The notes below the pieces were generated by a model that saw nothing but the letters and a program-made list of their open reading frames with translations, was not told where the DNA came from and searched no databases. This document shows positions 1 to 54,561 of a stretch of DNA of 64,000 bases, one piece after another. The stretch is from Stegostoma tigrinum (taxonomy: Eukaryota), in contig NC_081384.1 in NCBI RefSeq assembly GCF_030684315.1, positions 15,600,818 to 15,664,817 of the forward strand, read 5' to 3'. Position numbers and translations under genes: made by a program. Position 1 is the first letter of the stretch; every line of letters begins with the position of its first letter.

Positions 1-109
1 TTGATGTTCCTCTCTCATAAGTGGCTGCAGATTGTAGCTCTGAAAATCTTTAAAATGCCACAAACAGCTATACAAAACCCTGGTGAGACTCCATTTGGAG
101 TACAAATGA

Positions 110-640
110 GAAGATCTGGGCACCACACCTTAGAAAGGATATATTGGACACTCCCCTAGAAGGGAGTACAACAGAGGTTTACATTAATGATAGCTGGACT
201 TGAGGGATAAATTATGAGGAGAGATTATACAAATTAGGCCTATTTGTCTAGAATTTTGATTGTTATGGGATGATCTGATTGAAGTCTTCAAGATATTAAA
301 CAGAAAAAAAAAGACTGTAGATAAAGATAAATTTCCACTGGTTGGGGATTCTAGAACTAGGAGGCAGTTTAAAAATTAGGGCTAGACCATTCAAGAGAGA
401 TGTTAGGAAGCACTTCTACACACAAAGGGTGAAGAGGTTTGGAACTCCCTTCCATAAATGGTATTTGATGCTGGATCAGTTGTTTGTTTCAAATTGGAGA
501 TAGATAAATTGTTAAGCAAAAGTATTGAGAGATATGGGCCAAAGAGAGATATGTTGAGGTAGGCCACAAATCAGCCATGATCTCACTGAAATGGCAGAAC
601 AGGCTACAGGAGCTGAATAGCCAACTCTGATGTTCCTATA
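110..640 (+). mobile_element. decayed CR1-clade LINE 3' fragment
   Basis: Degenerate RT C-terminal motifs (W-A-P-H-L-R-K-D-I, LEGVQQRFT, DLIEVFKI) followed by a CR1-type 3' tail. Confidence 0.7.
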
Positions 641-1499
641 AGAGTCATACTGGATTTGAAATGTTAACTCTGTTTCTTCCTCCACAGATGCTGCCAGACT
701 TGTTGATTTTCTCCAGTATCGTGTTTGCTTCAGATTTCCAGCATCTGCTATACTTTATTTTTATTTGACTACAGATTGAATTGGTCAAGTCAAGGTGAAA
801 GCGGATTTCTAAATAAGATTCTAACCCACAAGAAACAAAATTTTCAAGGGTATTTACACAAAGAAAACCAATCACAAACAGAGGAGTGATCAGCTAACAA
901 AAATCCAACAGTAGTGCTCTACAGTCTACCGCTACTTTTCACGTGTGGGGTAGTGGGGTACGTAAATATTGTTAAGATATAAGTGGATAGATTCTTGTGA
1001 AGCAGGAGAATTACAGGTTATTCACAGCAGATGAGAATGTGGAATTCCAAACACAAACAAATCATCCATGACTTTGTTCAACAATAGAGCAGCCTCAAGG
1101 GGTTGACTGGTCTACTTCTGCTCTATTAATCCACGCCATCAGCTTTATTCTGCACCATACAAAACACCAGCCTCCAGCAATGACCATGTTGTTACTTTCA
1201 AACAGCTATCCAATTACCACGTTGCTTGTCCTTTCTCTGTAACCCAGTAAGTGTTTTGCTGTTCAAGCATACAGTGAAGATTATTATAATGCAGATGTTA
1301 GTGTCCAAAAGGTAAAAACATCACTAATAAGAAAACTCATTTTTAACAACTAAAATGAAGATTTAAATAAAGGTTATAACACTTTTGGAAGTCTTGAGAC
1401 CCCCAGACTACAAGCAAATCTGTATAATATTAAACCACAGTATAACAAACTTCCATTCAATTCTGCTTTGAAGGTTACTGTTTTAAAAAAATCTTTTAA

Positions 1500-3060
1500 G
1501 TGCAATAGATTGCAATAAAGCTAATTTTGAAGAATGAGGGATATATTTTTTAAAACGTTGAAAAAGGAGCTAAAATAGCCATAGGGATTCTTTAAGAATG
1601 CACTCATGTGAGTTCAGGGAAAATGTTTACTGTTCAACAAAAGTATAATCTAATCAATAACAAAATATCTTAGATGAACAAAAGGATAACGAAAAAGTAT
1701 TAGGAGAGCAAAAAGGATCAAAAAATTAAAATTTTGGAAGAACATAATAAATAGCACAAGTATAGAAAGAACAAAACAAAAATAAGGCTGGAGGTAGGAT
1801 CTCAAAGGATTGCATAAAATCAAGACTAATAACTATGAAATGGCACAAATATTGAAAGTTACTTCACCTCAATTTTCACCAGGGAGGTTAACATGACAGA
1901 CATGTCTTTTAAAAAGATGTCAAAATAAAATCTCAAAAACTTTAAGATGGGAAGGGGAGTGATAGCTGAAAGGATAACTATACCCCAAAAGGATAAAATT
2001 TGCGGACAAAATAGATTGCACTAACACATGCCAAAAGAAACTAAAGGAAGTGACAGCAAAGACTTATTAGATATGGACATATAAAATTCAAATAAAAAGA
2101 TGAAATGCCAAAACATTGATGAACAGGTAATATTACTCCTATACAGTATTTAAAAAGGGAGATAGAAAAGGTCCTACAGCACTGTAGGTCCTTTAGCCTA
2201 ATATTGGTGGGAGGACAGGTAATGTAATCTTTACTCAAAGATACATAGAAAGAAATCTGGAAAGAAAAAGCCAAGAACAGTCTGAGCAGATTTCAAACAT
2301 CATGCTTGGCCAAAAATGTTGCATTATTTAAGACAAGGATAATGCAGTGAACATAATATTCTTGCGATTTTTTTAAAGAAATCATCAGTAAAGGTATGTG
2401 TACCAGACCCATGACTAAGGTCAGAGAATGTGAAGTTAGAGACGAGTAGCAGAATGAATAGCTAACTTGTTACAAAAGAGATAACAGAGTTGAGTTTCAA
2501 GATGTTTATTCAGGATGGAGGAGGCTGGGAAGTGGTGTTCTACAGGATCACTGCTGGGAATACTGTTGTTCACCACGTTCATTAATTGATTTGAATCTGA
2601 TAATTGGATAGACAATATCAACATAAACACTATGACATCAAATTGGGGAAGATAGCTTATACTGAGGATGACTGCAGCAAAACATGCTATAGGTGTTAAC
2701 CAACTTGCAGTATGGGCTCAGAGCACAATCTGTGCAGATATTTGTCAGTATTATTGTACGATGCAGCCTTGTGCTGGAGGAATTAAGCCTTCAGTATGTT
2801 TCTCCCCCCTGCCTCAGTCTCAGCCCAGAAAATCCCTTGACAATATAACAAAAATTCAAATTTATAAGGGGAGAAAAAGTATGATCCTGTATTTTTGCAT
2901 TACATGGCACAAGTCACCAAGACAAGAATTTTAATGTAAAATTACTACATTGATTAGGTCCCCTTTATTTTAATACATTATATATAGTTGTCTTTGAGAA
3001 CCCCACTATAGGTAGGATGTCAAAACCATGGAGAAGTACCAGTGTGATTTGTTAAAGATA
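1500..3060 (+). mobile_element. highly decayed CR1-like LINE ORF2 remnant
   Basis: A-rich plus strand with eroded motifs (VTP-FKKG, Y/CR-LSL, SG-LQGSLLG-LLF); many stops. Confidence 0.5.
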
Positions 3061-4432
3061 TTGGAAAAGCAAAGAGCTGGATAGCTCATGCAGGGAGTAT
3101 GGTGTAAAGTGTAACTCAATAGCACTCTTTTTATATGGGGTAGATCACTATTATTAAGAAGTAGGCGGCTTTTCACTGGACGCTGAATTCTTAGTTTCGA
3201 TGTATATCTTCATAGAAAATTACTGACAAGTGCTTTTCATGGCTAATTGAATTTTGCACAATGAGTCAGTGAGTCATCTAGAGCAGGAAGGTCCTAAGTT
3301 TTATTTCTAGTCTGTGCAGTGTCAGCTGATCTTCACCAGATCAACAAAACAATTATCCACTGCACTCAACTGAATAAAGGGTGAAATGCTTCCCATTCAA
3401 GCAGCCTGCCCTGAGACAGTGGAAGCAATTATGGCTGTGTAGTAGTGTAACATGTAGGATAGTGAATCTCTCCCAATTTTTAGACCATGGAACAAAGCAC
3501 AGAAGGGAAATGGATTGTGTTCTTCCTGATTAACTTGAATTTAACTAAATTTCTATTCAAATTTGTATTTTAATACTAGGTCACCAAACTAAATTTGAAA
3601 CTCCGACATCTCCATGTACAGCAGCAAATGTTCTAAGTCTACCATAGTTGTGTGCTGCTACCCAAGTAATAGTCTCATCCATATATACCCCATATACTTT
3701 TTGAAGTGAAAGGAAAACACAATGTCATTCATATTTACTTATCCAATGTATATATTTTGCAACTGTGATGTAGTCATGTACATAACCATGACTTTACCAT
3801 CTTTATAAACTTCACATATTTCTCCCTGTGTATTATCATGTTTATCCAACGTGTTGCTGAGCTTAGAAGGCCCAGATTGTTTTTTGATTACTATTTTGGA
3901 ACTGAAGCTTGGGGAAGGATAGGATCAAGTTTGGCTGTAATACTCCAACATTCAACTAAGCTATTTTGTTGCATGCAAATACATGGGCATATGGGAAAGG
4001 TGCAGAGTATTTAATTATCTGTATGCAGTTAATGTCTTTAAACATGTGAGTAGCAGAGAAGATGGGGAAAACACTGCAAATGGAAATCATAACAATAATC
4101 ACCGCTGAACAAGTTCAGTGCCTATCATTATCGGGTGTTTAGTAGTTTGAATGTAACTATAATGTGGATTTTTTTAACAACATTTCTATTAAGTTAATGA
4201 AGAACAATGTACTTGGACTTTCATGACATATTTTCCATCAGAAAATAAAATATCACTTAACATAATTGCACCCTTTATTACTTCAATCCTTCCTTTCTTC
4301 TTCAAAATTCCTCAAAGGCGTTTCATCAGCCAAATCCGAGATGAGGTTTCCTGAAAATCCATATTTGAATTGCTCCAAATCAGGTGTTCATTTCTGCTAC
4401 AATACTGAAGTGGACCTGATCAAAGTCACAAA

Positions 4433-4530
4433 TGTGTGTGTGTGAGAGAGTGTGGGTGTGTGAGGAAAAGAGAGAGTGTGTGTGTGTGTGCGCGCGCGTG
4501 TGTGAGAGAGAAAGAGAGAGTGTGTGTATG
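4433..4530. repeat. compound (TG)n/(AG)n/(CG)n microsatellite
   Basis: Directly visible: gtgtgtgtgtgtgcgcgcgcgtgtgtgagagag. Confidence 0.9.
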
Positions 4531-4599
4531 GGTGTCTATGGCTATGGTATTCCTCCTAAACTTTCTCCAACATGTTGGCAGCCTTTGTCAGGTTAATCA

Positions 4600-5700
4600 C
4601 ATCATCCTCTCCAAATAACCCTCCTCCATCAACCAGCTAGGTGGGACCACACTTATTTGGCTCCATTCAGTAACTATCCAGTTGTAGTCAAAGAACGATC
4701 AGCAATTGTTTCTCTTCCAGTGCCCACACCATTATTTCTGGTCACCTCCAAGGATATATCATTGGCCCCTTTCTATTTTTAGAGAAAGATTACCTATTGG
4801 TGACATCCTCAGAAAACACATCAGCTTCCACATGTAAAATTAAAAGAAATAAAAACTTTACTTCACCATCATCTCTAAACCTTCACACAGATTGTCCCAA
4901 CATCCTAGTACTGAATGAGCAGAAAAATTCCTTCACAATATTTGTGACTACTGAAGCCATCATCTTTTATCTCCATCACAAACTATGCTCCCTGACCACC
5001 ATTCCATCCATCTCCCTGGCAGCTGCATGTCATCAAGCCACATCACTCACATACTTGGTTGTGTGATCCCAAGATGTACTTTAATTCACACATCTATTCC
5101 AATACAAGGCTTGCCTGCTTCCACTTCCTAAACTTCTCCAGCCTGTTCCTGCCTCAACTCATTTGCTTTTAAACTCAACCACGTCTTTGCTACCTCTAGT
5201 CTTGATTTTCCCAATGCTGTTGCCAAGTATTTTTCCATCCTTCATAAACCTGAGCTCATCCAAAACCCCACTAGTTATCCTAACATGCAGTGAATCCAAT
5301 TCACCCTGCATTCACCAGCCTACACTGTTCCGGTTTAAGCAACACCACTACTTTAAAATTTAAAACCCTTCCTCTCCCATACGTCCATGATCTCAACCCT
5401 TCCTATTTCTGGACACCTCCAGCTTTATAATCTCGAGATCTCCGTGCTCCTCCAATTCTGAGCTCTTGCACAATCTTATTTTAATCACTACCTATGTAAC
5501 CAGACCAGTACTCTAGGCTCACATCCCTGGAACTCCGTTCATAAACTTCCCTGACCTCCCTTAAAACACTACTTAACCTTACCATTTTGGCTACCTTGTT
5601 ACCATCTCCCTAAGTAGTGTTGCGTCTAAAACTTTCTTTGATAGCCTTGGGATCTTTTACTACATTCAAAGCACTATTTTTTAATGAGCGTTGTAAAATC
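4600..5700 (+). mobile_element. decayed L2-like LINE 3' part
   Basis: ccaaggatatatcattggcccctttctattt resembles PQGSILGPLLF; CT-rich plus strand and L2-type tail. Confidence 0.5.
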
Positions 5701-6143
5701 GTTAATAAGTAAAAGCTACACAAATTTAAAGGGGAAAATGTGCAGGGCTGGGGGAAAGAACCTCGGAGTCGGACTACGTGTATATTGATCACAGGAGCAA
5801 CATGATGAGCTGCATGTAAGATTCGAAGCGTCAAACGGTTGTAGAAGCGTGGACAATGCATCTGAACTACAATTGCCTGGCGACGTCTGTCGGCTGAACA
5901 TTGCCAGCACATTTGAGAAGTTAGAAGTTCCGAGCTGGATTGACCAAGCCTCTTTTTTTAAAAGATGAGGGTAGTTGTCTTTTGGGGGCGGGCGGGCTGA
6001 CGGCCACTTATAGTCAAATTACCGAATAAATTACTTTCAAATCATTAGAAATACGTAAACGTTTTATTAAAGGAAGTGCCAGTTTAGCAAAAGGAAAGCC
6101 AACGCAAATTCCTCCTACTCTTCAGTGTATTTTCCCCCATTAC

Positions 6144-6334
6144 CTTTCAAAGAGAAGCCGCAATACGTAGATCGCCCAGGTCCAGGGAAGAATAAAGTAC
6201 AAATCCTTAAGCCGGGGGTAGACTGGATCCTGCGAATTTTCCAGCTGCGCCCTGCTGACGTTATGGGGCAGCCAAAAACTCTCGTCCCAGACTGAAATGG
6301 AAAGCCAGAGCGGCAGCCAACCGCTGCCCTCCAT
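6144..6334 (-). CDS. ceramide synthase CERS5/CERS6-like, first coding exon (gene continues beyond the left window edge)
   Basis: ATG at 6334 in strong Kozak context (ccgacgATGG). Translation MEGSGWLPLWLSISVWDESFWLPHNVSRAQLENSQDPVYPRLKDLYFILPWTWAIYVLRLLFE(R) matches the CerS5/6 N-terminus (W-x-E-x-FWLPHNV...DLY...P...RL-FER). Phase-2 donor GAAAG|gtaatg at the same position as CERS5/6 intron 1. CpG-rich context. Confidence 0.88.
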
Positions 6335-6480
6335 CGTCGGAGCTGCCAAATCCACACCAGACTGCAAGACTCAGCCTTACAGCGAACGTGACCCCTGCCG
6401 TTCTGTCTCATCGATTGGTTAAACATATTCGAAAACAAATTCCTGCGTCGGGTTCCACAAACCAGCGCTTCTTGTTAGAT
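6335..6480 (-). promoter_or_regulatory. CpG-rich 5' UTR/promoter of the CerS-like gene with CCAAT box
   Basis: CpG retention; aaccaatcg on the minus strand at about 6411-6421. Confidence 0.5.
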
Positions 6481-8102
6481 AAAGACACTAGGACCCTACT
6501 TCTTTAAAAATTAAGAAAAAAATCCATTGCGTATTAAAGTAGATTAGGTAACCATACACAATTAGATAACATTAAAATTATCACACAGGTAAGGCGTATC
6601 TATTGTGTGCACAAAACAGTTTGCCAAAAGGAATTGTCTTTTATAAGTTCTCGTGAAATTTTTTTAGAAGTTTAACTTTTCGCGTTGATTCAAAAAGTTG
6701 TTTAAGCCTAAATTACATAATGAACGAGTCACTGGAACCGCTCGTAGGAGGGCTCTGAATTGACATACACAAGATTGAAGATCAAACCTCTCGATATTTA
6801 AAAAAAATACGGAAGCACCGCGCCTTCTCTCAACGAGGAGGATACATTCACCAGGCCAAGAAAAATCTGAAACTGTTTTAGAGCAGAATAGAGTCTGTTC
6901 CAAGCACGGTAATTTCTGATTCTATTTTATTTTAAAATTGACCCATTAAACCACATTATAAATATGTTTGGATAGTTTTCATAAACAATCGATAACATAT
7001 GAAAAAATTATTATAGGAAATGCAGCCATTTCGGGAAAAAAACATGTTTAAGGCCATAAGCCTTATTGAAAGTTAAAATAAGATAACGAGATAAACACCT
7101 TTTTCTTATTTGTGAACTATCTGGTAAGCTTCAGTTTTGTAAACTGTCGACCCATGTCACTGGTTCATCAATCAAAACAATCTTTTTGATAGATTGGGAA
7201 CTTTCACCTAGCTAACTGAACTAGCTACACCAGTCGGAAACCACAACAAAAAAACTGTCAAAACCGATCAAATTAGTAGGCGGTATTGAATGCTGTTAAA
7301 TCATCTTTCCCACTATTAGGTGGACATGATAGGTTTAAGATGAGCTGATTGTTTCTGAGAGGTGCACTTGCAACGGTTTCATTCAGTACTTAACTGCAAA
7401 GCAGCTGAATATGGCAACTTTTAAAACTTCCCTTTAAACGACTTCGTGTCCAATATTTTAAAATAGACGTCGTTTCAATAAGAGTTGTAGATTTTCTATG
7501 ATAAGGAATATGGTCGGTTTTATTTAGCATTCCAACTATTACACTGACAGGATTTCCAAAGTTTTGAGTATAGAGGGGCAGAAGTGGTGGTGATAATTTT
7601 TAGTCTGAATAAATTACACTTTCTCATTTATAATTCTACAAGAACAAACTGTTATCCATCGGCTTAACTGTGTATGAGTCACACTGCCCAATTATGTTCT
7701 GTAACATACTGTTAGGTTTATTTGCACATTCATGGGTTCTTTGTTACTGTGTAGCAACTGACGGTGGGGAGGGAGGGTGGTGTGATGCTATCATATTAGT
7801 CCAAATTAAAACAGTCAAAATCAGGGTTATGATCTATGTGCTTGTTCATACAATTCAGTTTTGTACATTTTACTTTATTGGTTAAACACATGGCACATAT
7901 TATTTCCAGAGCAAGAAAAAACTTTACATTCAAAAACACAAAAAATTTGACTGTAACAGTGAACTTTTTTTGACATTTCTTCTGCATTCAGGGCCTGCCA
8001 CAATGTCCACCACCAACAGCGACCAAGCTGATCAAATCCTAAAGGACACATTGGGTCTGCAATTGGCAGTGAGACAACCCACAAGACAGAAAAGGATACA
8101 CT

Positions 8103-18191: not shown

Positions 18192-18572
18192 ATGGATGAC
18201 ATATCTCTCTCGGACTCTGAGAGATTGGCTGGGGAGCGCTGGGCGCCCGTCGGTGCGGTGGCCAGCCCCGAGGAAACGGAGAAGGCGGTCATCCCACCCG
18301 AGGTAGGCCTGGTGTGCGGCGGCGCTACCGCCGGAGTGGCAGTGATGGCGGAGAAGATGCAGCGGCTAGAGAGCGAGCAGGAGCTGTTGAACTCGTCGCT
18401 GCTCGCCCTCACCTCCCACTTCGCCCAGGTGCAGTTCCGCCTCAAACAGATCGTCAACGCTCAGAGCGACGAGAAGGAGCGGCTGCTGAAGGAGCTGGAG
18501 GACTTCGCTTTCAAAGGCTGTCCGCAACCATTTATCAGCCGGGCTGTGGACGGGCAGCACCTGGACAGTGCG
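18192..18572 (+). CDS. RUNDC1: RUN domain-containing protein 1, exon 1
   Basis: MDDISLSDSE...GERWAPVGAV...EQELLNSSLLALTSHFAQVQFRLKQIV...LEDFAFKGCP; donor gcg|gtaagg, phase 0, 381 nt. Confidence 0.93.
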
Positions 18573-18885
18573 GTAAGGGGCATCATTTTCACTCCACCTA
18601 CTGCAGAATCCACTTTTTATATAAAAGTCTATTTAAATTTGAATGCAGTGGAAGAAATTGACTTAAGTCCACGAATTTTCGGATTTAAAAGTGATAGGAA
18701 GCTGGCAATCATAACCAACTACTAACAAATCAGATATGCTGAAACTCATCTCCAGGGTGGCAAGATTATGGCCCGTTTCTCTTCTGCCTCTTGTCGTCTA
18801 CCCCCTTCACCCCACCCCCATCTTATGTTTCTAGTTTGTAGTTTAGTATGCCAAATCAGCCAACCTGACCTAACTCAAGTTGTAT

Positions 18886-19051
18886 ATAGATAAGTGTGGA
18901 GCTGGAGAAATACAGCCGGTTGATGTTTCTGATTGACTTCTGAAGAAGGATCCTGACCTGAAATGTCAACTTTCCTGCTCCTCTGCTGCCAGGCCTGCTC
19001 TATTCCTCCACCTCCACACTGTTAGCTCTGACTTAAGCACAGGCAGTTTTT
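18886..19051. mobile_element. older Penelope-like fold-back terminal insertion
   Basis: Opposed terminal-repeat halves, degenerate ctgaagaaggatcctgacctgaaatgtc, flanked by ctaactc(c)aagttgtat direct repeat. Confidence 0.6.
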
Positions 19052-19249
19052 ACTAACTCCAAGTTGTATGATCTTTTATTGATGACTTGCTGAAATAAAA
19101 TGCATGTCATTCAAACATCCAGCCTGGAGTATACTTAACGATGCAACCTTAACAGCCTACTGCATCAAAGAATCCCTCAGATTTCCCACCCCTTTGTGAG
19201 GAAAAAATTCCTTTTCATTCCTGTCCCTGGGTGACCCTTACTCTGTTCA

Positions 19250-20450
19250 TGAAACAAAGGTAGTGCACACATGCAGCAGCTCCAGATTCAGTGTTCATAC
19301 CAGGGATATCCATGGTTGAGTTCTACTTGTTGCAATTTAAAAGAATGATAGATGGTCTCATTGAAACATATAGGATGCTTAAGGGGCTTGACAAGGTAAA
19401 TTCTGAGAGGATGGTTTCCCTCTTGGGAGTATCTAAGATCAGAGAGTGTAATCTGAGAATTAAGGGGTGCTAATTTAAGGCTGAGATGAGGAGGAATTTC
19501 TTGAGTGTTGAGCCTTTGGACTTCCTTACCACAGAAAAGGGACAGTGTCTTTGTGTATATTTAAGGCAGCGATAGACCCTTCCTCGATCAGTACTGGAAC
19601 CAAAGTGGATGTGAAGTGATAATCAGCTGTAATCGTTTTCAATGGTGAAACAGGCTTAAGGGGGTGAATGGCCTACAACCATTCAATAACCTCTGCATCT
19701 ACCCTTTCAAGCTGCCTAAAAGTCTAAGGTTCTCCTCCAACCTTAAATGAGTCTAGGCCCAACTCTCACTAGCAGTGTAGTGGACAGTGAAGAAAGTGAC
19801 CTCACAGTACAGTGCGCTGAGGAGTCAAAGATGGAGCTTAGTTTAGATAAATGTGAGATGCTGCATTTTGGAAAGGCAAGTCAGGCCAGGATGTACACGT
19901 TAATGGTAAGGTCCCAGGGAATGTTGCTGAACTGAGTCCTTTTGAGTGGAGGTTCAAAGTTCCTTGAAAGTGGAGTCACAAGTAGAGAGGATAGTGAAGA
20001 AGTTGTTCAGTATACTTGCCTTTATCAGTCAGTGCACAGATTACAGGAGTTGGGAGGTCATGTTGCGGCTGGACCGGACATAGTATTCCTGTGCTGGTAT
20101 AAACAATGTACAATTCTGGTCTCCCTGCTGTAGGAAGGATATTATGAAACTGGAAAGTGTTCAAACAGATTTGCAAGGATATTGGCAGAGTTGGAGGGTT
20201 TGAGCTTTTGAGGAGAATGGCCTGCTAGACTGGTGTTATTTTCCCTGGAGAGTCAGAAGCCGAGGGGTGACCTTATTAAGGTTTATAAAGTCATGAGGGG
20301 CATGGATAGGGTGAATAGCCATGGTCTCTTCCCTGGGGTGGGGTGAGTCCAGGTCTAAGGTGAGAAGGGAAACATTTAAAAGGGACCTAAAGGACAATTT
20401 GTTTTCATGCACGTGGGTGGTGCATATATGGAATGAGCTGCTGAGAACAG
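19250..20450 (+). mobile_element. two adjacent decayed CR1 LINE fragments in RUNDC1 intron 1
   Basis: GLIETYRMLKGLDKV and DKCEMLHFGK motifs. Confidence 0.75.
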
Positions 20451-23097
20451 TCTTTAACTGTACATATTTCTAAAGTGCTAGTAAATAAGTGAGCCTATGA
20501 ATACTGTCCAATTTTAAAAGTTGCATTTGTCCAAATGTAGCATATTACCAAAAAAAAGCATTTGGACACCCTTCAAAAACCTCACTATCCAAATTGTAGA
20601 AAGATACAAATAATTGCGAGATTGCACCAAACTGTCCCAAATAAACACATTGCCTTAATGATCTGTACAGTTTTTTATGTAATTGAACTTATTTTACAAT
20701 TTTTTTTCTGTACTGGATATGAATTTACACATCAATTCTAAAGGGAATTATGCCATGCTTGTTGCTTTCTTGAATGAATAGATTTAGTTCATTTTAGGAT
20801 GTAACATATATTTCAACAGGATAAACAAAAGAATTATTTTAACCACTAGGCAAGTCAATATTGGCCTTGTGAAAACAGGTGTTTTTGAAGTATGTTTTGC
20901 ATCTTTGCAAATGTATTAAAATTGTAACTGTACATATCGTGAAAGCAAGAGCTTACATTACTGATACTACAAGGTTAAAAGATTAGAAAATCCAATGCAA
21001 AATACTGATAAAGCTGTAAAGCACTGACTTATCAGTCTGCATTTCTGAAAAGGGAAGACAGGTCAAGTGTGCACTTGGCATTTAATATTAAGACAAAAAG
21101 TACTGAAGATGGTTTACTGTTTTGCTGGCTGTGCTCTCTCCTCCATTAAATTATTTGACCATAGTGATAACTGACTACATTGATGTTGGGGCCTTTTACA
21201 AACCTCTATAGGAGATGAGTGACAAATTTTCCATTACTGGTCTTTGTCCTCAATACCAATAACAAAGTAGCCTGCCTACCTTTAGAATTGCTGCTACGTG
21301 TTATACATGTGATATTTGAGATGACATCATAAACCGTATTCAAAAATCTCAAGTGACAGGTTTCTGAAATTATGAATTTTGCTTAATTTGCAACCACTAT
21401 ATTTACATTTGGAAATTTGAGGATTCTTAACTTGCAATATTCTCAATTTGCAATATTCTCTTGGCTAAATAAATAATTCATGAGATACAAATCACCTCCA
21501 AATGGACTGCTTAGGATTGTTGCTGAATAATAAAGTAGACAGTTGCCAATAACTGGTCAATTTTGCAAATGGCTGAGTCTGCTGGTTCGGTTTGCATATA
21601 GAAAGACTTGAAAATTTTATCCATGTAGCATAGTGTAATTTGGAATAAAAAGTTTGATTTAAAGAAGGATAATTCTGAGCAGCAGAAATTTGGAAAAAAT
21701 TTAGTTGCTACTCATTAAAATGGCTCTAATCTTCTGTTTTTGTTCTATTGATCCTGCCTAACCAACAGGAAGGATTGGTAAGTTTATATTCAAAGTTTAA
21801 CGTCTTTATCTAGATTACTGATAATTGTCTTTTATAAGTAATGCAGATAACGAAATATTGTTTTCTTTTTGTTTAAGTATCAGCTTGCCAGGTCATGCAG
21901 CCCTTTTTGAGAGTGAGCTGTCGGTTGAAAAGAGGGAAATTCTCATCACATCTACTTTTTAGCTGTGGTCCTCCTGACTTCAGGAGCCAGCAATCGTTGA
22001 AATCATTTTGATGTGGCAAGATGTTTTGTTTTGTGTTCTGCTGTTAATCAAGTGTAACTGGGTCTTTAACCATCTGAGTACTTATTGCTGAGCAGCAGAT
22101 CTGATACTGCAAAAATTACTTTTGTATTTGTATAATGTTTTAACCTTAATTACTTTTAAATCCCTTTTTAAAACCACCTTTAAAAGGTTTGAGTGAAACA
22201 TTTTAGCATCTGCCTTGATTCCATAATCAAAATGTTATGTTGCATAATGAAAAGGTTTGTCATTTTGATCTCGGTAGTTCTCATTTCGTGTTTGGCCAAC
22301 TGTGGAATTCTTTAGGGATTGGATGTTTGGACAGCGTGTTGACATCCATAGGGCACACAAGGAAATGCCATCACAGAACATTGTAATCATTCAGTTACAA
22401 GAAAGGTAGTGTTTTTGCCACAGATTAATAATTTAACAAAGTAGAAATTTTGCTGCTAAAGAGACCAGATTAACTGAAGTTCAATGAGCCAACTTTGACG
22501 AAAAAGCAACAGATTATTTTGCATGGTTCAAGAACTGCAAAAAATAACGCGTGTCCATTTGGTCCTTGCATAACTTACATGCACATCTGTTAACAAGAAT
22601 TTGCTTGCCCTGTATAATCATGTTCAAAGACCCTTGATGTAAATTACGATAAGTTTTATTTCATGTTAATTTTATCAGACTTTTTTTTTGTTCCTTTGAA
22701 ATCTCCAATTATCAAATACCTTGCTTTGCCTTGTACTACTACAATTTGCAGGGTTTTTAAGCAATTCTTTTAGTCTGAAAATGTCTGCCAGTTTGCTGTT
22801 AGGATGCAAGAGCATTGTCCTAACAATGACTGTTCTGTCTCAAAAGATAAAGTAGGTTACAGGCTGCAGCTTGAAAACCACAACTCAGGACCAAGGCTGC
22901 ATCAATTGGGATGTGTAAATGTGTTTACAAATTGCTGACTTGGTTTGCCCCTGCTGGTACTCACAGCTTGCGCAGATAGGAAGGGCAATGCTGAAGTATA
23001 TTACTTTAATTCTTTGAAAACACAATGGCTATATTTGTAACACCCGTATTGCCCAGCCCTAATTGGGTTTGAACTGAGCACGTCATTTCAGAGATCA

Positions 23098-24346
23098 AGA
23101 TAACAAAATGTGAAGCTGGATGAACACAGCAGGCCAAGCAGCATCTCAGGAGTACAAAAGCTGACATTTCGGGCCTAGACCCTTCATCGGAGAGGATTCT
23201 GAAATAAATAGGGAGAGAAGGCGAGCCAGACTGAAGATGGATAGAGGAGAAGATAGGTGGGGAGGGGATAGGTCAGTCCAGGGAGAATGGATAGGTCAAG
23301 GAGGTGGGATGAAGTTGGTAGGTGGGAAATGGAGGTGCGGCTAGAGGTGGGAGGAGGGATAGGTGAGAGGAAGAACAGGTTAGGGAGGCAGGGACGAGTT
23401 GGGCTGGTTTTGTGATGCAGTGTGGGGAGGGGACGAGCTCGGCTGGTTTTGGGATGCAGTGGGGGAGGGGGAGATTTTGAAGCTTGTGAAGTCCACGTTG
23501 ATACCATTGGGCTGCAGGGTTCCCAAGCGGAATATGAGTTGCTGTTTCTGCAACCTTCGGGTGGCATCATTGTAGCACTGCAGGAGGCCCATGATGGACA
23601 TGTCGTCTGAGGAATGGGAGGGGGAGTTATAATGGTTCACGACTGGGAGGTGCAGTTGTTTATTGCGAACCGAGCGGAGGTATTCTGCAAAGTGGTCCCC
23701 AAGCCTCCGCTTGGTTTCCCCAATGTAGAGGAAGCCACACCGGGTACAGTGGATAGAGTATACCACTTTGGCAGATGTGCAAGTGAACATCTGCTTAATA
23801 TGGAACGTCATCTTGGGGCCTGGGATGTGGGTGAGGGGGGACGTGTGGGGGCAAGTGTAACACTTCCTGCGGTTGCAGGGTGTGGTGGGGTTGGAGGGGA
23901 GTGTGGAGCGGACAAGGGAGTCAGAGAGTGGTCTCTCTGGAAGGCAGACAAGGGTGGAGATGGAAAAATGTCTTGGGTGGTGGGGTTGGATTTTAGATGG
24001 CGGAAGTGTCGGGGGATGATGCGTTTGTATCTGGAGGTTGGTGGGGTGGTATGTGAGGACGAGGGGCGGTTATTGTGGGGGTGGGGTGTGAGGGATGTGT
24101 GCAGGAAATGTGGCAGACATGGTCACCTCTCCACCTATCTTCTCTATCCATCTTCAGTCCGCCTCCTTCTCTCTCCCAATTTATTTCAGACCTCTCTTCC
24201 CCATTCCCCCCCCCGCCCCCTCTGAAGGGTCTAGGCCCGAAACGTCAGCTTTTGTGCTCCTGAGATGCTGCTTGGTCTGCTGTGTTCATCCAGCTTCACA
24301 CTTTGTTACTTGGATTCTCCAGCATCTGCAGTTCACATTATCTCTA
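23098..24346 (-). mobile_element. 5'-truncated Penelope-like retroelement (GIY-YIG endonuclease, Neptune-like) with inverted 5' terminal repeat
   Basis: ORF 23380-23811 VVYSIHCTRCGFLYIGETKRRLGDHFAEY...LGTLQPNGINV; inverted copy of the 3' end at about 24125-24346; 13-bp TSD atttcagagatca at 23085-23097 and 24347-24359. Confidence 0.9.
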
Positions 24347-25199
24347 ATTTCAGAGATCAGTTGAGTCAGCCATGTCACTATAGGTCTGAAGTCACCTGAA
24401 CTGTGTGGACCACTGTTTCCTTCCATAAAGATGGTTTTCAATGACAATTGATGTTTGCTCATGATAACTACCACTGAGCTGATGTGTAATTCCAGATTTT
24501 ATTTATTGAATTTATATTTCACCAGTTGACATGGGGAATTTGAAACCTTGCTCCCAGAACATCAAATTGTGTCTCTTGAATACTAATCCAGTGACATTAT
24601 CAAGATGATGTCACCTTGATAGTCATGTGTTGGATTTGAGGTTTAGGGCTGTAGTCCAACTTAGATTTGTGATACGTATATTCGTGATGGACCTCAGCCT
24701 GGTGGGTGCAGGAAGTTACTGGGTTTAGTGCCTAATCTTAGACGGTACAAATGATTAACCATGCTGAGTCAGGGTGGTGTTTATTGTCCAATACCATAAG
24801 GAACAGACTCAAAGTCAAGGACCGTTAGGTGTATTGTGTACTTCAAAGCTAGAAGGTTTAAAGTTTTACATTGTATGCAAGAGCGCATCATTGTGAAATT
24901 GTAGGAGGATGGATCGTTTTGAGCTTGCATGAAGTTGGATGAGTGAATTAATAACCATGCTAGCATAGAATTGTTGGATGAGGCTATGTTTGTCTCCCCT
25001 GGAATTTCAAGAGGAACAGGGGGAGGGCTAATTTGAACATGGTGAAGCAGCTTTGACGTTACTTCCAGCTTTCTATATTGCATCTCTGAAAATTTCAACA
25101 TTTTCAATTTTTAAAATGAGCATTTATAAAATATCTTGTTTTGAAGCTACCTGCAGTTTCAACATTGAAAGTGTAAAATGCACCAATTTATCTCAAATA

Positions 25200-25408
25200 T
25201 AGTAGGAACTGCAGATGCTGGAGAATCTGAGCTAACAAGGTGTAGAGCTGGATGAACACAGCAGGCCAAGTGGCATCAGAGGAGCAGGAACGCTGACGTT
25301 TTGCGCCTAATATGATTTCTGAAGAAAGATCTCGGCTGGAAACATCAGCCGCCTTGCTTCTCTGCTGCTTGGCCTGCTGGGTTCATTCAGTTCTACACCT
25401 TGTTATCG
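25200..25408. mobile_element. Penelope-derived fold-back mini-insertion with 16-bp TSD
   Basis: Direct repeat caatttatctcaaata at 25184-25199 and 25409-25424; two opposed terminal repeats. Confidence 0.85.
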
Positions 25409-25790
25409 CAATTTATCTCAAATAGCCCCTTTCGCACTGAAAACTTTGCTTTTGCTTGAGATTATTTTTAACCCTGTTTCAAATTTGTGTTTATTACACT
25501 CATCTCTGTAGGATGTAGCTGCACATGTTGTGACTTGTTCACTTTTTTTTATTTTGTGTATATTTCTAACTTAACTAACTTAATCTGCTTTGTTGACAAT
25601 ATGTAATATCCCTGAGTATTGTATTCAATAACACCTGATTTCAAATTATTCTCTGGTTTCTGTAGACTTGCAAATATGTGTTCATGAATAATAAAGCTTC
25701 AGTTTTCCCAGCATTTGGCCAACTTGGATAGAACCTGCGATTGTAATGTGCATTTGAAAATACAATATAATTTTTCTCCCCTTTTCTTAG

Positions 25791-25967
<177 letters not shown>

Positions 25968-26119
25968 TAGAGTTGAAACTCATTGTACAAGAAATGTGTT
26001 TTCTGATGTCATTCATAATCAATTTAGTCTAGTGGCATAGTCAACCAAAAATAACTAATATTTCAACAGCTTTAAAGTGTTTGGATCTGGATCTTTTGTC
26101 AAGACAACCAGAGAAGGCT

Positions 26120-26440
26120 GTGTAGCATCGTGATTCTGGGAACACAGTTTTGAATTCCACCATGGCAAATTGTGAAATGTGAATTCAGTTGAAATTAGCA
26201 GCTAAAAGCTAGACTGTTGGTGACCGTGTAACAATAGTTATTGAAGAAAAACTGTCCTTTTAAGGATGGCAGGTTTCCTTCCCTACCTGGTAACTCCAGA
26301 CCCACAACAATGTGGTTGACTCTTAATTGACCTCAGAAATGGCCTAGCAAGTCATTCAGTTCAAGAGCTGATAAGGATGGGCAACAAATGAAAGCCTTAC
26401 CAGTGATGTCTGCATTCCTTCCAAGAATTGGAAAAAAAGC
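26120..26440 (+). mobile_element. decayed tRNA-derived SINE
   Basis: Shares ccagacccaca(g/a)caatgtggttgactct...aaatggcctagcaag with the copy at 61350-61580; A-rich tail. Confidence 0.6.
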
Positions 26441-26732
26441 TAATTATGTAAAGAGCTTCATGTGCTTCAACTGTCAGCATAGTTAAAAATCCAGAACCAT
26501 CTCCACCTTAGCACTCCAGGTTGGGCTGTCTTAATCTCAACCAAAACTGATTTTTTTTTAGGAAAGTGCACACTATGGCACCAGAAGAAGGTAAGTAGAT
26601 TTAAGATACACATCAGAAACATCTCAGTTGCCAGGAAGCTGAATGACCTATCTCTGTTCTTGAATTCCTAAGTAACAGTTATTCCTCAATTCTCAAAGGC
26701 TCTTCCTGAGAAACCATGCAAATGATAAAATG

Positions 26733-27325
26733 TTGAGGTTGGTTGGCTTGCCAAGCTGGTTTCTTGTATCGTAGATGTTTCACTACCATGCTAGGTAACA
26801 TCCTCAGTGTAGCCTCCAATGAAGTGTCAATGTGCTTTCCTGCCTGGTTTTAAACTCTGGGGTCCGTTGAGCTGGACTGCCTCACTTCCAGTTTTCCTAC
26901 GGGGTAGAGTTCAACGTGTTTATTGATAGCATGCTTTGTGGACTGCCCTCCTTTTATGAATCCTCATGCCTGTCTCTGCCTAGCATGACCCAGAATTTTG
27001 GTGTTGACCACATGGCATGCTATGCAGAGACAGGCACGAGAATTCCTAGAAGGTCGGCCCTCCACAAATCATGCTATTAATAAACACGTGGAACATATAC
27101 TGGGTTGCGTTCAACTACGTAGGAAACTGGGAGTGAGGCAATCCAGCTCAACGGACCCCAGGGTTTAGAAACCAGGTGGGAAAACACAGGCACTTCATCA
27201 GAGGCTGCGCTGAGGATGTTGCCCAGCATGGTAATGAAAGGTCTGCAATACAAGAAACCAGCTCAGCGAGCCAACCAACCTCAATGCCCACAAGCCGAGC
27301 TACAAATCTACTCCAAAACCTTTAG
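26733..27325. mobile_element. Penelope-like inverted pseudo-LTR pair (second family) with 12-bp TSD
   Basis: Arms of about 260 bp (about 26733-26990 and 27012-27286) are reverse complements with mismatches and indels; hammerhead-like ctgagga...gaaa at 27210-27243; direct repeat aatgataaaatg at 26721-26732 and 27326-27337. Confidence 0.85.
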
Positions 27326-27649
27326 AATGATAAAATGCGCAAGTATGGAGCTCGCTCTTAAAGTTTAAAAATTGCGGAAACATCCCCCTCCCCGCCCCCC
27401 ACCTTGCTGGTGGATGTTGGTATTTTTACCTTTTTTAGCATGGACCAGGGAATTCATAATTTGTGATTTCACAGATACAGTGGATTTGCTGTATCCACTT
27501 TTTTTTCATACGAAATTGCATTTACGTGGAGGGTTTTGCTTAATGTCATCCCCCAGCATGCTACACTTAATGTGCTGATTTTGAAGTGTTGTCATTATTG
27601 TAGTGTAGGGAGAATAGCAAACTACTACAAACAAATTTAAATAGTTCTG

Positions 27650-30250
<2,601 letters not shown>

Positions 30251-30619
30251 ACGTTTAAAAATCATACCTGAAAGATGGCACTTCTGATTCAGTAGTACTG
30301 AGTGAATGCTGCACAAAATTGTTGGCCTAGATTATACATTTTGTTTCTGGATTGGGGCATGCACCCATAACTTTGATCCAGGTGAGGAATGCCACTGAAT
30401 CTAGGCTAACATTGTTGGGCTCTGTACCAGCAAGCTGTTAGTTTGCAGCCGCAGCTTTTAATCATAAGGAGGAAGGAGAAGCGAAAATGCAGTCTTCTAG
30501 GAACAGACAATATCAGCAATATTGTGTTAAACTATTTAATGGCAGAACATTTGCAAGTATGTCTTAAGTGAGCCTTTAAAATTTGGTAAAAAGGTGGGTC
30601 TAGAGATGAAATGTTTTGA

Positions 30620-30847
<228 letters not shown>

Positions 30848-31630
30848 TAGAAAAATTGTTATAGTCTCACTAGCCATTCACATTTATTGTATTAATTGAT
30901 CTTAGGATCAATTATCTTACCTTTTTTTAGAACTTTTGTGTTGCATGTACAAAGAGAGCATGACAGGAAACAATTCCAGGGGATGCCGTTTTTTTACCAC
31001 ACTCAGCCTTGCTTCGCCCGCCATTTCCCCAAAAAGATTGCCTGTGTAATTTGAAAAATGACTTGTGGATGTGCCAATCAAAACAGTATGTAATAGTTAA
31101 CAATCAAAATACAACTAGCTACAGGATTTGCAATTGTACAGTAACCATACTTGTTCTGATCTTTTTCATGTTCTCTCTTGCCACCGCCCCTGTCACTACC
31201 ACTACCACCCCACACCCCCATCCCCAAAACATGCCTCTGGGTCTTCAGAAACTGTAATCTCTTGACCAGAGAAAGAACTGTTTAAGATTATGCTTTTTTT
31301 CATTGCTATTTGTTTCAGCTTACTAAATTTGGGAGCAAACTGAGACTTTTTCTAGGTTATCAGGTGGTCTCAACTTGCTGGCAGAAAGCATTTTATTACT
31401 GAGCCTAAGGTCATGTGTGATAGGTGATGTGTAGTTTTGATTCTGATCTTAAATCAACATGAACTGTTTTAGTTTAAATTCCTGGAGTTAAAATCTGAGG
31501 TTTTGCCTAACTGTGTAATTATATAATACGGTCAGATTATGAAATTTTTTTAAAGCTCAGTTTGATTTGAAGTGGTGACCCACAAATTTTGCCAAAGTGA
31601 TATGATCTCTACACTTGCTTTCATTCCCAG

Positions 31631-31741
31631 ATGAAGTTGGAAACCCTCCGCAGGTTCAGAATGGAAAGTGCATGTGCAACGTGCACGGAGTGAAAGATTC
31701 TCAGGCATCAACTGCAAAATTGTCAAATGGAAGTCATCATG
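31631..31741 (+). CDS. RUNDC1: RUNDC1 exon 4
   Basis: Acceptor ttcattcccag|; (D)EVGNPPQVQNGKCMCNVHGVKDSQASTAKLSNGSHH; donor g|gtgagg; 111 nt, phases 1/1 keep the frame. Confidence 0.88.
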
Positions 31742-32241
31742 GTGAGGTTCAGTCTTACTGATTCATTTTATTTCTTGGTATAATGGGCTGTTGTGATAAT
31801 ATAGATAAATTTCATTATTCAAAGAGCCTCCACATTCTAAATGAAACATGGTTATATTCCCAAAGTGTTAGTGGTTGGTCTTCTGACTTGTGCAGAGTGA
31901 TTCAACCGAGTAATTTTTTTTAAAAAAAGATGTCACATACCTCTACATTTAATGTACGCTTTCTCTCTTGCCTGTCCACTCCTGTCACATTTTATATGAC
32001 CTGGTTTTTGGAAGTAAAATCTAATGCTTATAAAAATCATCTTTAAAATGTAATCAATATGTTCACCTTTACAAAGCAACAATTTGGGAAAATCTAGGAA
32101 TACTTCCTGGGACTTTTTATAAGGGCTGTTTATAGTTGTCACTGCACATCAATGGTGATTACAGACCACAAACTCATGTGGCAAGAGATGGCTTTATATA
32201 TGTGCAAGTATTATCTAACTTCTGTTTTGGGAGTATATTGA

Positions 32242-33120
<879 letters not shown>

Positions 33121-44712: not shown

Positions 44713-44889
<177 letters not shown>

Positions 44890-45494
44890 TGATGGTGGTT
44901 GTTAATGAAATACCATAAATAGTGCTTTTAATAATGAGGCTGCAATTTCTGCATGCTTACTCAACTGCAGGATTAATCTATTTTTGAGTTACAGCTGGTT
45001 GCAATGTATTGAGAGATATTTTGTAAGGATGTGTACTTGATCTGGCAACTTGTAGCAAATTATCTCCAGATCTACCACGTATTGGCTACTAACTGGTGTC
45101 TTTTAATGGGAAGGAAAGAGGGGGGCTCTGATGGTCACAGTTAAAATCAGAGAAATTTGGACTTGAACAGCAACATTTGGGGAATCAAGGACCTTGAAAT
45201 GTCTGTGTCTGTTTTGTCTGCCATGTATCTGCTTTGCCTATACATAGATTTGTAAGTGGTGGGCCATGAAGGTGAGCTTTAGGCCCAAGAGTTCTAATTA
45301 AGTGGCTGCAGGAGGAGAACTGAATGAAGCTGAACTGGCTTCATTGGGACAGGTGAGGATGATATTGGCAACGCTCAATGCCAAGAAGGTGGACCACAAC
45401 CAAAGGTTGGACTTGATCTAATGAATCAGGAAGCAGATTTTTGCTGATGGACTTTGAGCTAACTCGAATTTAAATATTATGCTTTACCTTTTAG

Positions 45495-45665
<171 letters not shown>

Positions 45666-45999
45666 TAAGAATTAGAACATGCATCACTGTGGAAATTGAG
45701 TTCAATTGCTGCTGCAGTCATATGTTTAGAACTGTCTTTAGTGCTAGAATTTCAGAAGTATGTCACTTTAAATTTTGGTTGGCAAACTGTCAGGCTCTGG
45801 GATTGCATTTTAATCCTAAAAGCTCCCTAATGTAATGTCCTGAGAGTTTTCTAGATCTTTATTTGTGTTCCTTCCCAATTCCAATGTGGAAAATCCACTA
45901 GTATGTGACCTACTTATGTGATGAATTTTATATGACACCTTTATAAAAATGTATTTACCATTTAACAGTGTTATGTTGAGAGCTTGAGTGCTTCATTTT

Positions 46000-46590
46000 G
46001 AGAAGCTAGAATATAAAAGCAAGGATGAGCTGCTTGAGGCTGTATTAGCCTCTTGTCAGACCGCATCGGAATGTTGAGTAGTTTGGGCCCCATCCTAAGG
46101 AAGGATGTGCTAGCCTTGGATGGGATCTAGAGGAAGTTCACAAGAATGAAGGGTTTGTCTTAGAAGTAGTGGTTGAGGACTCTGGGTCTGTGCTGAATGG
46201 TGTTTTAAAAGGACAAGAGGGTGAGTCTCATTCCAACTTGAGTATTGAGAGGCCTGGATAGAGTGGACTTGAAGATGTTTCTGCAGGTAGGAGAGACTAG
46301 GGCCCAGGGGCACAGTCTCAGTGAATGAGCAACCCGTTAGAACTGAGATGAGGGATTTCTTCAACCAATGTGTGGTGAATCTATGGACTCATTGTCTTAG
46401 AAAGTTGTGATGGCTAAGTCATTTAGTGTCTTTAGGGCAGAGAGAGGTAGGTTCTTAATTAGTAAGGCGTTAAAAGGTTATGGGGAGAAGGCCGGAGAAT
46501 GAAGGTGAAAAACATGTCAACAATGATTCAATGGCAGAACAGATTCAATGGGCCAAATGGCCTAATTCTGCTCCCATGACTTATGGTCAG
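46000..46590 (+). mobile_element. decayed CR1 LINE 3' fragment in RPL27 intron
   Basis: LRLY*PLVRPH...FGPH-RKDV motif remnants and CR1 tail. Confidence 0.8.
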
Positions 46591-47665
46591 TTTGCAGGAT
46601 GTGAGCTGAGAAATTCCAACTCACCAAAATACTGCATTTAACCCCAGGCGTAATACAGAGAACATGATGCGATGGAGGAGAGGCACAGGTTCTAAGTCTT
46701 CAAACTTGAGTTAAGCAATTTTAATATGCAATGTGATGTTGAGAGCTTAAATGCAAATTCCAGGCTTGCTGAGTCTCTCCAGTAATTTTTTTTGTTTGCT
46801 TCAATGGGTAGACAACATGTTTTCAACGGAGAGTGCAGTTTGTATAAAAAATCCATCCACTTCAATGAAGTTGAGTTTTGAGTACCTAATTAGATGTGGT
46901 TTGATGGTGTGAAATGTTGTGACAGTTTTTCACGATTTTAATAAAAAGCTGAAAAATGGATTTGATCAAATATTAGGCGTAACAAAGCACCCAAAATGTC
47001 ACTGACCAATTTTACTTTACTGCTGCGGTTATGAAATGCTTTTTGCTTCAAGCACTTAGGTCATGTAGTAAACATAATAGACATTTGTTTTTTTGCAAAT
47101 GTAGCCTTCAAAGTTGAAGATGTTCTGAATAAGAATTTAATTTCAGGTATCTTGTAGGTATTGAAGTTGGCAAAGCATTTCTTGACTGGGACCTAACTTG
47201 ATTCTGAACCAGATATTTGGTATAAATTGGCACACTCTTATTTCAATAACCTTTACTAGTTTCTCTAGGATTGTTGACACAGTTTCTGGGATGAGACTTT
47301 TTCCATTTAATCTGGTAGAACAGAAGCTTGCCGGTCAGAATCTCTGATCTAGATTGATTTGGAGCCACAGGTGGTGGTCTTGGAGGTCATGGCTTGGGTG
47401 TTTGGGAAATTTTTTGGAAATTTTGATACCCTACATAAGTTGTAGGGAAATCTCCAAGTCTTGTAAATAGTGATACCTCAGTGAGCAAGGATGGACAGGG
47501 AAAGAAGGCACATGAGAGTAAGGATGAGGTGAGGAGACCTAGTACACCTGGGGGTCGGGGAGGGGAAGACGGTGCAGCCCGTTGGCAGCTTTGCTTCGTT
47601 GGATAGTTGCATCACTTTTGGGAAGCCATTCTCTAGCCTCCAGAACAAATCCCACCTATAATGTG

Positions 47666-47881
47666 ATAATGGGAACTGCAGATGCTGGAGAATCCAGGAT
47701 AATGAAACGTGAGGCTGGATGAACACAGCAGGCCCAGCAGCATCTCAGGAGCACAAAAGCTGACGTTTCGGGCCTAGCCCCGTCATCAGAGGGCCTGATG
47801 AAGGGTCTAGGCCCGAAACGTCAGCTTTTGTGCTCCTGAGATGCTGCTGGGCCTGCTGTGTTCATCCAGCCTCACATTCCG
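47666..47881. mobile_element. young palindromic Penelope-derived mini-insertion with two hammerhead cores and 13-bp TSD
   Basis: 81-bp arms 47709-47789 and 47795-47875 (2 mismatches, 5-nt spacer); direct repeat cacctataatgtg at 47653-47665 and 47882-47894. Confidence 0.92.
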
Positions 47882-48933: not shown

Positions 48934-49062
<129 letters not shown>

Positions 49063-49730
49063 TAGGAATCAAATATGGATCAAATAAGACAGGAAACATT
49101 TTAGAAAAAACTTTTTCTTTTCCAAAAGAAGACTGATGGAACTTTGTGCTTGGGCCTTGTCCATTTTACTCGCATGTACCCTGCTTTGAAGATAAGTGTT
49201 ATGATCAAAACAATTGTTAAAGCTAATTATTCTTCATGAAAGATTTGTATAAGTCCATCAAGATGGCTATGAATATACTTATTGATTGTTCTATAAAATA
49301 AAAGATCTGTTTAAAAGTAAGGTTGTTGACCAACAGACAAGTGACATGTTAAGAGATTATTATTGTTAAATGTGTCATAATTGATACTCTAACCTCACCT
49401 ATGTGAAAGACTTTCCTAAGCATGTAGACTGCAGTAAATTATACTTTGCAAGTTTCCTGTGTTTAGATTGTCATGTTTTTTTTTTGTAGTTAACGTATTG
49501 TTCACCTTCAAAATCACTTCTGTCTATTGCTGACCTTCTAATTTCTTTGTTACATCTACCAACTTTTGTAATCGTTTGCACCAAATAGGGAAGTTTACCT
49601 AAGGTCTATTTAAGATATCTCTGGCTGTTCTGGGATTACTTCTAATTATTTATGGATTACCCTTTTTAGAACAATAACACCAAGCTGTCCCTTTGAGAAG
49701 TTAACCATGTGCAACTTTGTTTTTCTGCAG

Positions 49731-49779
49731 GTACAAGACAGGAAAGAATAAATGGTTCTTCCAGAAGCTCCGATTCTAA
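49731..49779 (+). CDS. RPL27: RPL27 coding exon 4 (stop)
   Basis: YKTGKNKWFFQKLRF*; joined CDS 411 nt = 136 aa. Confidence 0.97.
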
Positions 49780-54544: not shown

Positions 54545-54561
54545 GAAACGAAAGTGAAAGT
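54545..54561 (+). promoter_or_regulatory. tandem IRF-binding element/ISRE in first intron
   Basis: gaaacgaaagtgaaagt contains three GAAA cores, including a consensus GAAAGTGAAAGT. Confidence 0.65.

Follow-up and report, generated by a model that had tools for sequence, protein, structure and literature searches.

Humans carry six ceramide synthase (CERS) genes, and of the two that concern us here, CERS5 maps to 12q13.12 and CERS6 to 2q31 (PMC2211742). The catalytic and pocket residues of CerS6 have been described as H211, H212, H238, D239, D242, R275, Y142, Y189 and W318, with a His at 315; the enzyme forms an acyl-histidine intermediate, and the loop between TM6 and TM7 closes its acyl tunnel (PMC11919693). 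A passage of PMC7876150 places the chain-length loop at 11 residues, CerS5 299-309, and does not make it the sole determinant. A role has been described for the N-terminal sequon, and replacing a nearby Trp of CerS5 (the equivalent of Arg28 below) by Ala lowered activity by over half (PMC11742613); a C-terminal dimer motif, DxRSDxE, has also been reported (PMC8789539). As to the chromosomes, the Hox clusters of gnathostomes fall into two groups, A with B and C with D, separated by the first genome duplication (PMC10972751), and the distribution of the G6PC family over human chromosomes 2 and 17 agrees with the Hox paralogon (PMC2566581). CHST16, from an unrelated enzyme family, offers a described case of the same pattern that we propose here, a vertebrate subtype seen in non-amniote genomes and lost in amniotes (PMC7353957).

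We analysed 64,000 nucleotides of zebra shark (Stegostoma tigrinum) DNA, referred to below as the window, near the left end of which lies a first coding exon of CERS5/6 type (Table 1). Our preferred reading, to which we assign a probability of roughly three in four, is that it belongs to an intact third gene of the CERS5/6 group, ancestral to jawed vertebrates, that sits next to RUNDC1 and represents the HOXB-side copy.

Table 1. Features of the 64-kb zebra shark window, in window coordinates.
Feature	Position	Strand	Remarks
CpG-rich, promoter-like stretch around exon 1	5501..7500		CpG observed/expected 0.70-1.12 in four 500-bp windows
Probable 5' untranslated region	6335..6467	-	Contigs reach 6467 (X8) and beyond 6700 (X1); they cannot show the transcription start
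CerS coding exon 1	6334-6144	-	191 nt (63 codons and two further bases); encodes the lumenal N-terminal part and the first transmembrane helix of the third CERS5/6-type enzyme
N-glycosylation sequon N25-V26-S27	6254..6262	-	Equivalent of CerS6 N18; predicted from sequence
Arg28	6251..6253	-	Replaces the Trp conserved in Hox-type CerS (CerS6 W21, CerS5 W29)
Intron 1	1..6143	-	GT donor 6143-6142; extends past the left end of the window
RUNDC1	18192..33120	+	Five coding exons; faces the CerS gene head-to-head and anchors the synteny
RPL27	44797..49776	+	Pfam KOW and Ribosomal_L27e matches
Putative first coding exon of the following gene (by synteny, IFI35 would be expected)	54506..54559	+	In a CpG-rich stretch; without Pfam support

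The exon boundaries given in the first-pass annotation, 6144..6334, proved exact. The exon runs from its ATG to ...GAA AG, directly behind which GTAATG forms a phase-2 donor at 6143, and its translation shows FWLPHNV, DLY and RLLFE(R). We presume that this intron position is conserved with human CERS5/6. When exon 1 was compared with solved structures by phmmer, human CerS6 (8qz6) was the sole match up to E 10, with an E-value of 7.2e-11; a Pfam scan of the 63-aa exon by itself returned no domain. It is 100% identical to XP_048416824.2 and to the named records P0006, P0008 and P0014, the last of which is from zebra shark. No further CerS exon was found by tblastn inside the 64-kb window. Contigs from 4/4 runs (four studies; three coded organisms, all relatives of the zebra shark, the RNA nature of the runs being guessed rather than on record) leave exon 1 at the donor and pass into exon 2 sequence, and in all four runs the bases past the donor encode the next residues of the full-length proteins. 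A retrocopy is ruled out by the coding intron together with these spliced contigs. That the gene is intact is supported by full-length orthologues in relatives and by splicing of exon 1 to exon 2, exon 1 alone having been read in the window itself.

An upstream ATG at 6426 (minus strand) lies 92 nt before the CerS start and is out of frame with it by 2 nt; the contigs have no indel between 6334 and 6426. The frame that it opens (6426-6144, minus strand) stays free of stops through the whole of exon 1, and the same stretch forms an in-frame extension in records from white shark, basking shark and a stingray. Two readings suggest themselves, an upstream ORF that overlaps the CerS frame, or promoter sequence, with a CCAAT box, that is simply conserved. 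We rejected the 30-aa N-terminal extension of some records as the true start, since it is out of frame here and the contigs carry no indel. Record P0014 is flagged LOW QUALITY, and its model begins at the ATG at 6426, 2 nt out of frame with the exon. A 2-nt shift upstream of the true ATG is enough for that flag, further corrections downstream being possible. We likewise discarded a pseudogene reading based on the flag, as the visible break sits upstream of the ATG; P0014 contains no X and has all catalytic residues.

The divergent arrangement with RUNDC1 at about 12 kb held up on measurement, with 11,858 bp between the CerS ATG and the RUNDC1 ATG (18192, plus strand). The RUNDC1 exons of the window are 98.5-100% identical to zebra shark record P0262. 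That record carries a 131-aa N-terminal extension (13204-13308 and 17901-18191, plus strand) absent from other shark records, which is probably an over-prediction. Intron 2 of RUNDC1 holds an inverted copy (29136-29246, minus strand) of part of exon 3 (30726-30836, plus strand), 111 nt long and 99% identical, sitting in frame within a 126-aa ORF (28960-29340, minus strand) that resembles a retroelement fragment, perhaps a Penelope-like one. From the ORF translations, we also assume that fragments of LINE reverse transcriptase-like and GIY-YIG endonuclease-like repeats lie at 11.9-14.0, 23.2-24.2, 42.5-43.4 and 62.9-64.0 kb. The presence of IFI35 in the window, asserted earlier, gained no support: the Pfam IFI35/NID family matched 0/85 plus-strand ORFs scanned from 54.3-62.7 kb, these being part of 111 listed.

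A search with exon 1 returned three full-length clusters of 27, 1 and 2 members. The 18 members listed come from sharks, rays and one chimaera or are unnamed, and those with names are called 'ceramide synthase 6-like'. Identity is 83-94% within this clade (83-85% when a full-length member served as query) and no higher than 54% to the other 117 of the 120 matches listed (of 625), CERS5 and CERS6 included. Between zebra shark and chimaera, the third paralogue is 83% identical and CERS5 81%; conservation as high as that of CERS5 argues, at the level of sequence, for a needed function. Linkage to RUNDC1 was assessed by proxy, from equal sizes of the contigs carrying the two genes and from the distance between RefSeq protein numbers. 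By this proxy, the third CerS gene lies on the RUNDC1 contig in all 14 of the cartilaginous species with both values. The RefSeq numbers of CerS and RUNDC1 differ by 1-2 in 11/14 pairs and by 13, 80 and 117 in the other three, in a comparison that leaves aside the zebra shark (two records, different number series) and in which one species was assigned from number prefixes. CERS5-type genes are found on different and smaller contigs; the exceptions are Narcine, Hemitrygon and Mobula birostris (P0295, P0301, P0302), in which they share the RUNDC1 contig. In these rays, a HoxC-bearing X block has been reported as fused with an autosome, yielding a Narcine chr12 of 103,180,129 bp, the same size as the contig found here (bioRxiv 10.1101/2025.02.26.637739). 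We therefore attribute the joint presence of CERS5 and RUNDC1 on one ray contig to this published X-autosome fusion, and the three rays would have two CERS5/6-type genes on an X-derived chromosome.

The third paralogue is neither CERS5 nor CERS6. In Leucoraja, Amblyraja, Chiloscyllium punctatum and Scyliorhinus torazame, all three paralogues lie on different contigs; zebra shark records of CERS5 and CERS6 were not among the members listed (15 of 27 and 15 of 38). The Leucoraja protein is 50% identical to both CERS5 and CERS6, whereas the latter two are 72% identical to each other. In a 51-row maximum-likelihood tree, the shark, ray and chimaera sequences form their own clade (100/99) outside CERS5 (98/89) and CERS6 (100/98), each of which has shark and bony-vertebrate members, and CERS5, CERS6 and the lamprey genes are united at 97/96. 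Grouping with CERS5/6 instead of CERS2/3/4 received 97/97 in the 51-row tree, with Ciona inside, and 98/94 in a 24-row tree. AU tests on the 24 rows rejected union with shark CERS6 (p 0.0007) and with shark CERS5 (p 0.0003). The trees returned the third CERS5/6-type paralogue that the first-pass annotation had suspected, and not an orthologue of CERS5 or CERS6 or a recent duplicate. By sequence, the clade lies outside the CERS5 nest and outside the CERS6 nest, and the four species named above have a separate gene of each kind. Single residues also mark the clade: Arg28 is fixed among its cartilaginous-fish members, being present in 16/16 that show the motif (2/18 isoforms are without it) and Trp at that position in 40/40 CERS5, CERS6, lamprey and outgroup rows, while the position of CerS6 Y181 is His in 11/11 clade rows and in 0/40 others. 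Names in the databases are a poor guide. The RefSeq 'ceramide synthase 6-like' models of cartilaginous fishes are this same gene, and the automatic label also covers true CERS5 orthologues: by the tree, Callorhinchus 'ceramide synthase 6' and several shark and skate 'CerS6-like' entries are of CERS5 type (P0022, P0306, P0115, P0293, P0297, P0305).

That a gene tied to RUNDC1 has been kept in cartilaginous fishes, as first proposed, holds for sharks, rays and a chimaera; the proposal was too narrow, in that a caecilian, the tailed frog, sturgeons and paddlefish also appear to have it. Candidates were sought among 150 cluster representatives by a 255-row overview tree (rows of 330-460 aa), blastp of all 150 and reading of the sequences, and four named 'CerS6-like' emerged, from Ascaphus truei, Rhinatrema bivittatum, Acipenser and Polyodon. 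In the 51-row tree, support for a union with the shark clade is 96/92 for the two amphibians and 85/91 for sturgeon and paddlefish, bootstrap values for the latter ranging only from 85 to 93. The 24-row AU tests rejected a position of the amphibian sequences beside frog CERS6 (p 0.00015) or frog CERS5 (p 0.00002). Seven residues are common only to the shark clade and the amphibian rows and absent from the CERS5 and CERS6 rows (controls 0 and 0), and eight are common to the shark clade and sterlet (controls 0 and 0), several of the residues shared with sturgeon and paddlefish being present in outgroups as well. The caecilian protein P0352 and caecilian RUNDC1 P0173 are on contigs of equal size, 87,785,054; outside cartilaginous fishes the linkage data cover the caecilian alone. 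All the joined branches are long, at 0.6-1.4 changes per column in the 51-row tree, and an ESM Atlas look-up gave generic CerS clusters only. Sequence data suggest survival in these lineages as a fast-evolving copy.

Among the matches listed (120 of 625; representatives at 50% identity), sequences from mammals, birds, reptiles and teleosts all stayed outside the clade. The shark clade is not listed as a representative of its own in the 50%-identity library, so that further members could go unseen in coelacanth, lungfish, bichir, gar, teleosts, salamanders or reptiles. The third paralogue is not among the six human CERS genes. Both amphibian proteins are unusual. In the frog protein (P0312/P0458), the customary N-terminal motif and the position of the sequon are gone, the caecilian record P0352 is short and has Leu at the position of H238, and the chain-length loop is strongly altered in both, the two members having 1 and 3 of 11 residues in common with CERS5. 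As judged from these loops, the amphibian members are better candidates for a new specificity than the shark protein.

The predicted shark product is an ER-membrane ceramide synthase of about 369 aa, of the Hox-domain class. In P0014, a Hox-like domain (PF00046, 25.8 bits; cut-off 22.9) precedes a TLC domain with the Lag1p motif (PF03798, 153 bits; cut-off 24.6). An AlphaFold2 model (pLDDT 79.7) has 8qz7 and 8qz6, both CerS6, as its top Foldseek matches (E 6e-25), which is consistent with a seven-helix fold like that of CerS6. The catalytic and pocket residues named in PMC11919693 are retained in 7/7 cartilaginous rows. With human CerS6 (8QZ6/8QZ7) and CERS5, the third paralogue shares the Hox-like and TLC domains, a Trp equivalent to W14, the sequon, the His-His pair, HD..D, R275, Y142, Y189, W318, the core of the TM6-TM7 loop and, as modelled, the fold. 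It differs from them in its identity of about 50% and in its separate clade and locus, in W21R, Y181H and W190G and the loss of W282 and W302, in the last two loop residues (K/R-I/T, not P/A-S), in a longer, Trp-bearing N-terminus and in a shorter C-terminal tail. CERS2, CERS3 and CERS4 have in common with it the family, the domain layout and a His at the 315 position; however, it is only 39% identical to bird CERS2 and shares 0/11 loop residues, and these three paralogues fall outside the CERS5/6 group in all trees. The dimer motif is present as DxRSDx in 17/18 members (one isoform is without the C-terminal end), with E as the last residue in 6 and D in 11, P0014 among the latter; yeast Lac1 likewise departs at this residue.

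Going by the conserved residues and the fold, the first His of the His-His pair would attack the acyl-CoA, the acyl chain would sit in the tunnel shut by the TM6-TM7 loop, and it would then be handed to a long-chain base. A distinct acyl-CoA specificity had been envisaged in the first-pass annotation. For the shark protein, the sequence lends it no support, with 9/11 residues of the P0014 loop identical to a primate CERS5 row and 0/11 to bird CERS2. Because the loop is CERS5-like and the catalytic residues are kept, the C14-C16 range is the likelier one, and we would expect with some confidence a preference for these chain lengths. An altered chain range seems rather unlikely, and an enzyme with little or no activity of its own more unlikely still.

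How the gene arose is a separate matter. It is very probably older than the split of jawed vertebrates, a dating drawn from the trees: the clade stands outside CERS5 and CERS6, each of which has shark and bony-vertebrate members, and it includes amphibian and probably sturgeon members of its own. In the best tree of the 51-row, 24-row and reduced 19-row sets, it is sister to CERS5+CERS6, a topology that fits a HOXB-side copy of the first duplication. We presume that human RUNDC1 and RPL27, at 17q21, lie near HOXB; the HOXB chromosome is not named in the passages searched of the shark and paddlefish genome papers. The picture that we favor is that the copy beside RUNDC1 would have remained on the HOXB-type chromosome, with CERS5 (HOXC side) and CERS6 (HOXD side) descending from the other first-round copy, and we consider it probable that the gene is an ohnologue of the first genome duplication. 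With 24 rows, AU tests rejected a position sister to CERS5 (p 0.020) or to CERS6 (p 0.006), a union of all jawed-vertebrate genes (p 0.007), and grouping of the clade with lamprey A (p 0.006) or lamprey B (p 0.04). The placement outside CERS5+CERS6 is nevertheless sensitive to long branches and depends on taxon choice. In the 19-row set, with four bony-vertebrate rows dropped and one outgroup, three alternatives were not rejected (sister to CERS5, p 0.09; sister to CERS6, p 0.12; with lamprey B, p 0.12). In a 20-row set with Ciona, the group of CERS5, CERS6, lampreys and Ciona reached only 78/43, the CERS6 node was without resolution, and alternative placements of Ciona had p 0.30 and 0.36. 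Lampreys have two CERS5/6-type genes (clusters P0068 and P0081), on different contigs. No cyclostome member of the clade was found, both lamprey genes grouping with CERS5+CERS6.

These sensitivities are the main opening for another history, in which a single gene, the CERS5/6 ancestor or CERS5 or CERS6 itself, was duplicated to a place beside RUNDC1 before jawed vertebrates split, or an older chordate paralogue persisted there, and then evolved fast. The long stem branch, the missing lamprey member and the sister-to-CERS5 or -CERS6 positions left standing in the 19-row set would all suit such a duplicate, and the Ciona alternatives leave room for a split before vertebrates. However, the topology of four trees matches what is expected of Hox A/B against C/D, CERS5 and CERS6 both map to Hox chromosomes (PMC2211742), the neighbouring G6PC family fits the same paralogon (PMC2566581), and an intron at a coding position means that the gene is no plain retrocopy, so that we regard this history as unlikely. 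Much less likely is a duplicate confined to cartilaginous fishes, with the amphibian and sturgeon 'CerS6-like' genes as separate fast duplicates drawn in by long-branch attraction. The length of every joined branch and the weaker attachment of the sturgeons are what one would expect of it, but the AU tests rejected both a clade united with shark CERS5 or CERS6 and amphibian sequences placed beside frog CERS5 or CERS6, the exclusive shared residues number 7 against 0 and 0, and the contigs of the caecilian gene and of caecilian RUNDC1 are equal in size.

The remaining explanations concern the state and the identity of the gene. It could be broken or decaying in zebra shark, or its product could have weak activity and serve chiefly as a dimerization partner for other CerS; the LOW QUALITY flag, Arg in place of a conserved Trp with the W190, W282 and W302 equivalents also lost, and the D that ends DxRSDxE in 11/17 clade members might be read in this way. 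Yet the 2-nt shift upstream of the true ATG would suffice to account for the flag, P0014 is free of X and complete in its catalytic residues, the zebra shark-chimaera identity is on a par with that of CERS5, and spliced contigs come from every run, which together make decay or weak activity highly improbable. That this is CERS5 or CERS6 proper, translocated to the vicinity of RUNDC1, a reading in keeping with the database name 'ceramide synthase 6-like', has next to no chance of being correct, given the separate CERS5 and CERS6 genes in four species that group with their bony-vertebrate counterparts. The HOXB-side ohnologue thus remains the reading that we prefer.

Our literature search, with most subscription papers and supplements outside its scope, turned up nothing published on a third CERS5/6-type gene, and the words shark, lamprey, Callorhinchus and cartilaginous do not occur in the main text of a paper on CerS6 phylogeny (PMC6315813). 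A sequence of this kind may be present in the table of TLC-family sequences in PMC8789539. Gene models exist already under an automatic name; treatment as a separate subtype was not found in records or papers. Old paralogues lost in mammals are a familiar kind of finding, and the surprise is accordingly moderate. There are consequences for annotation all the same: 'CerS6-like' entries of sharks, sturgeons and amphibians carry a misleading label, which the result corrects.

Work on ceramide synthases has taken the six mammalian enzymes as its frame, and a further ancient subtype alters the history of the family, giving the jawed-vertebrate ancestor three CERS5/6-type genes. The clade also supplies natural variants at sites that have been studied by mutagenesis, namely the N-terminal Trp, the chain-length loop and the dimer motif; the C16 enzyme of this family is a drug target. 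More tentatively, and with the odds somewhat against it, we suggest that this is a seventh vertebrate CERS subtype, the sole Hox A/B-side CERS left, which strong selection has maintained in cartilaginous fishes, which bony vertebrates lost on several occasions and whose tuning was altered in amphibians. If that is true, the rewriting of the loop in amphibians may give other ceramide chain lengths, and the gene would provide a natural series on acyl-chain choice.
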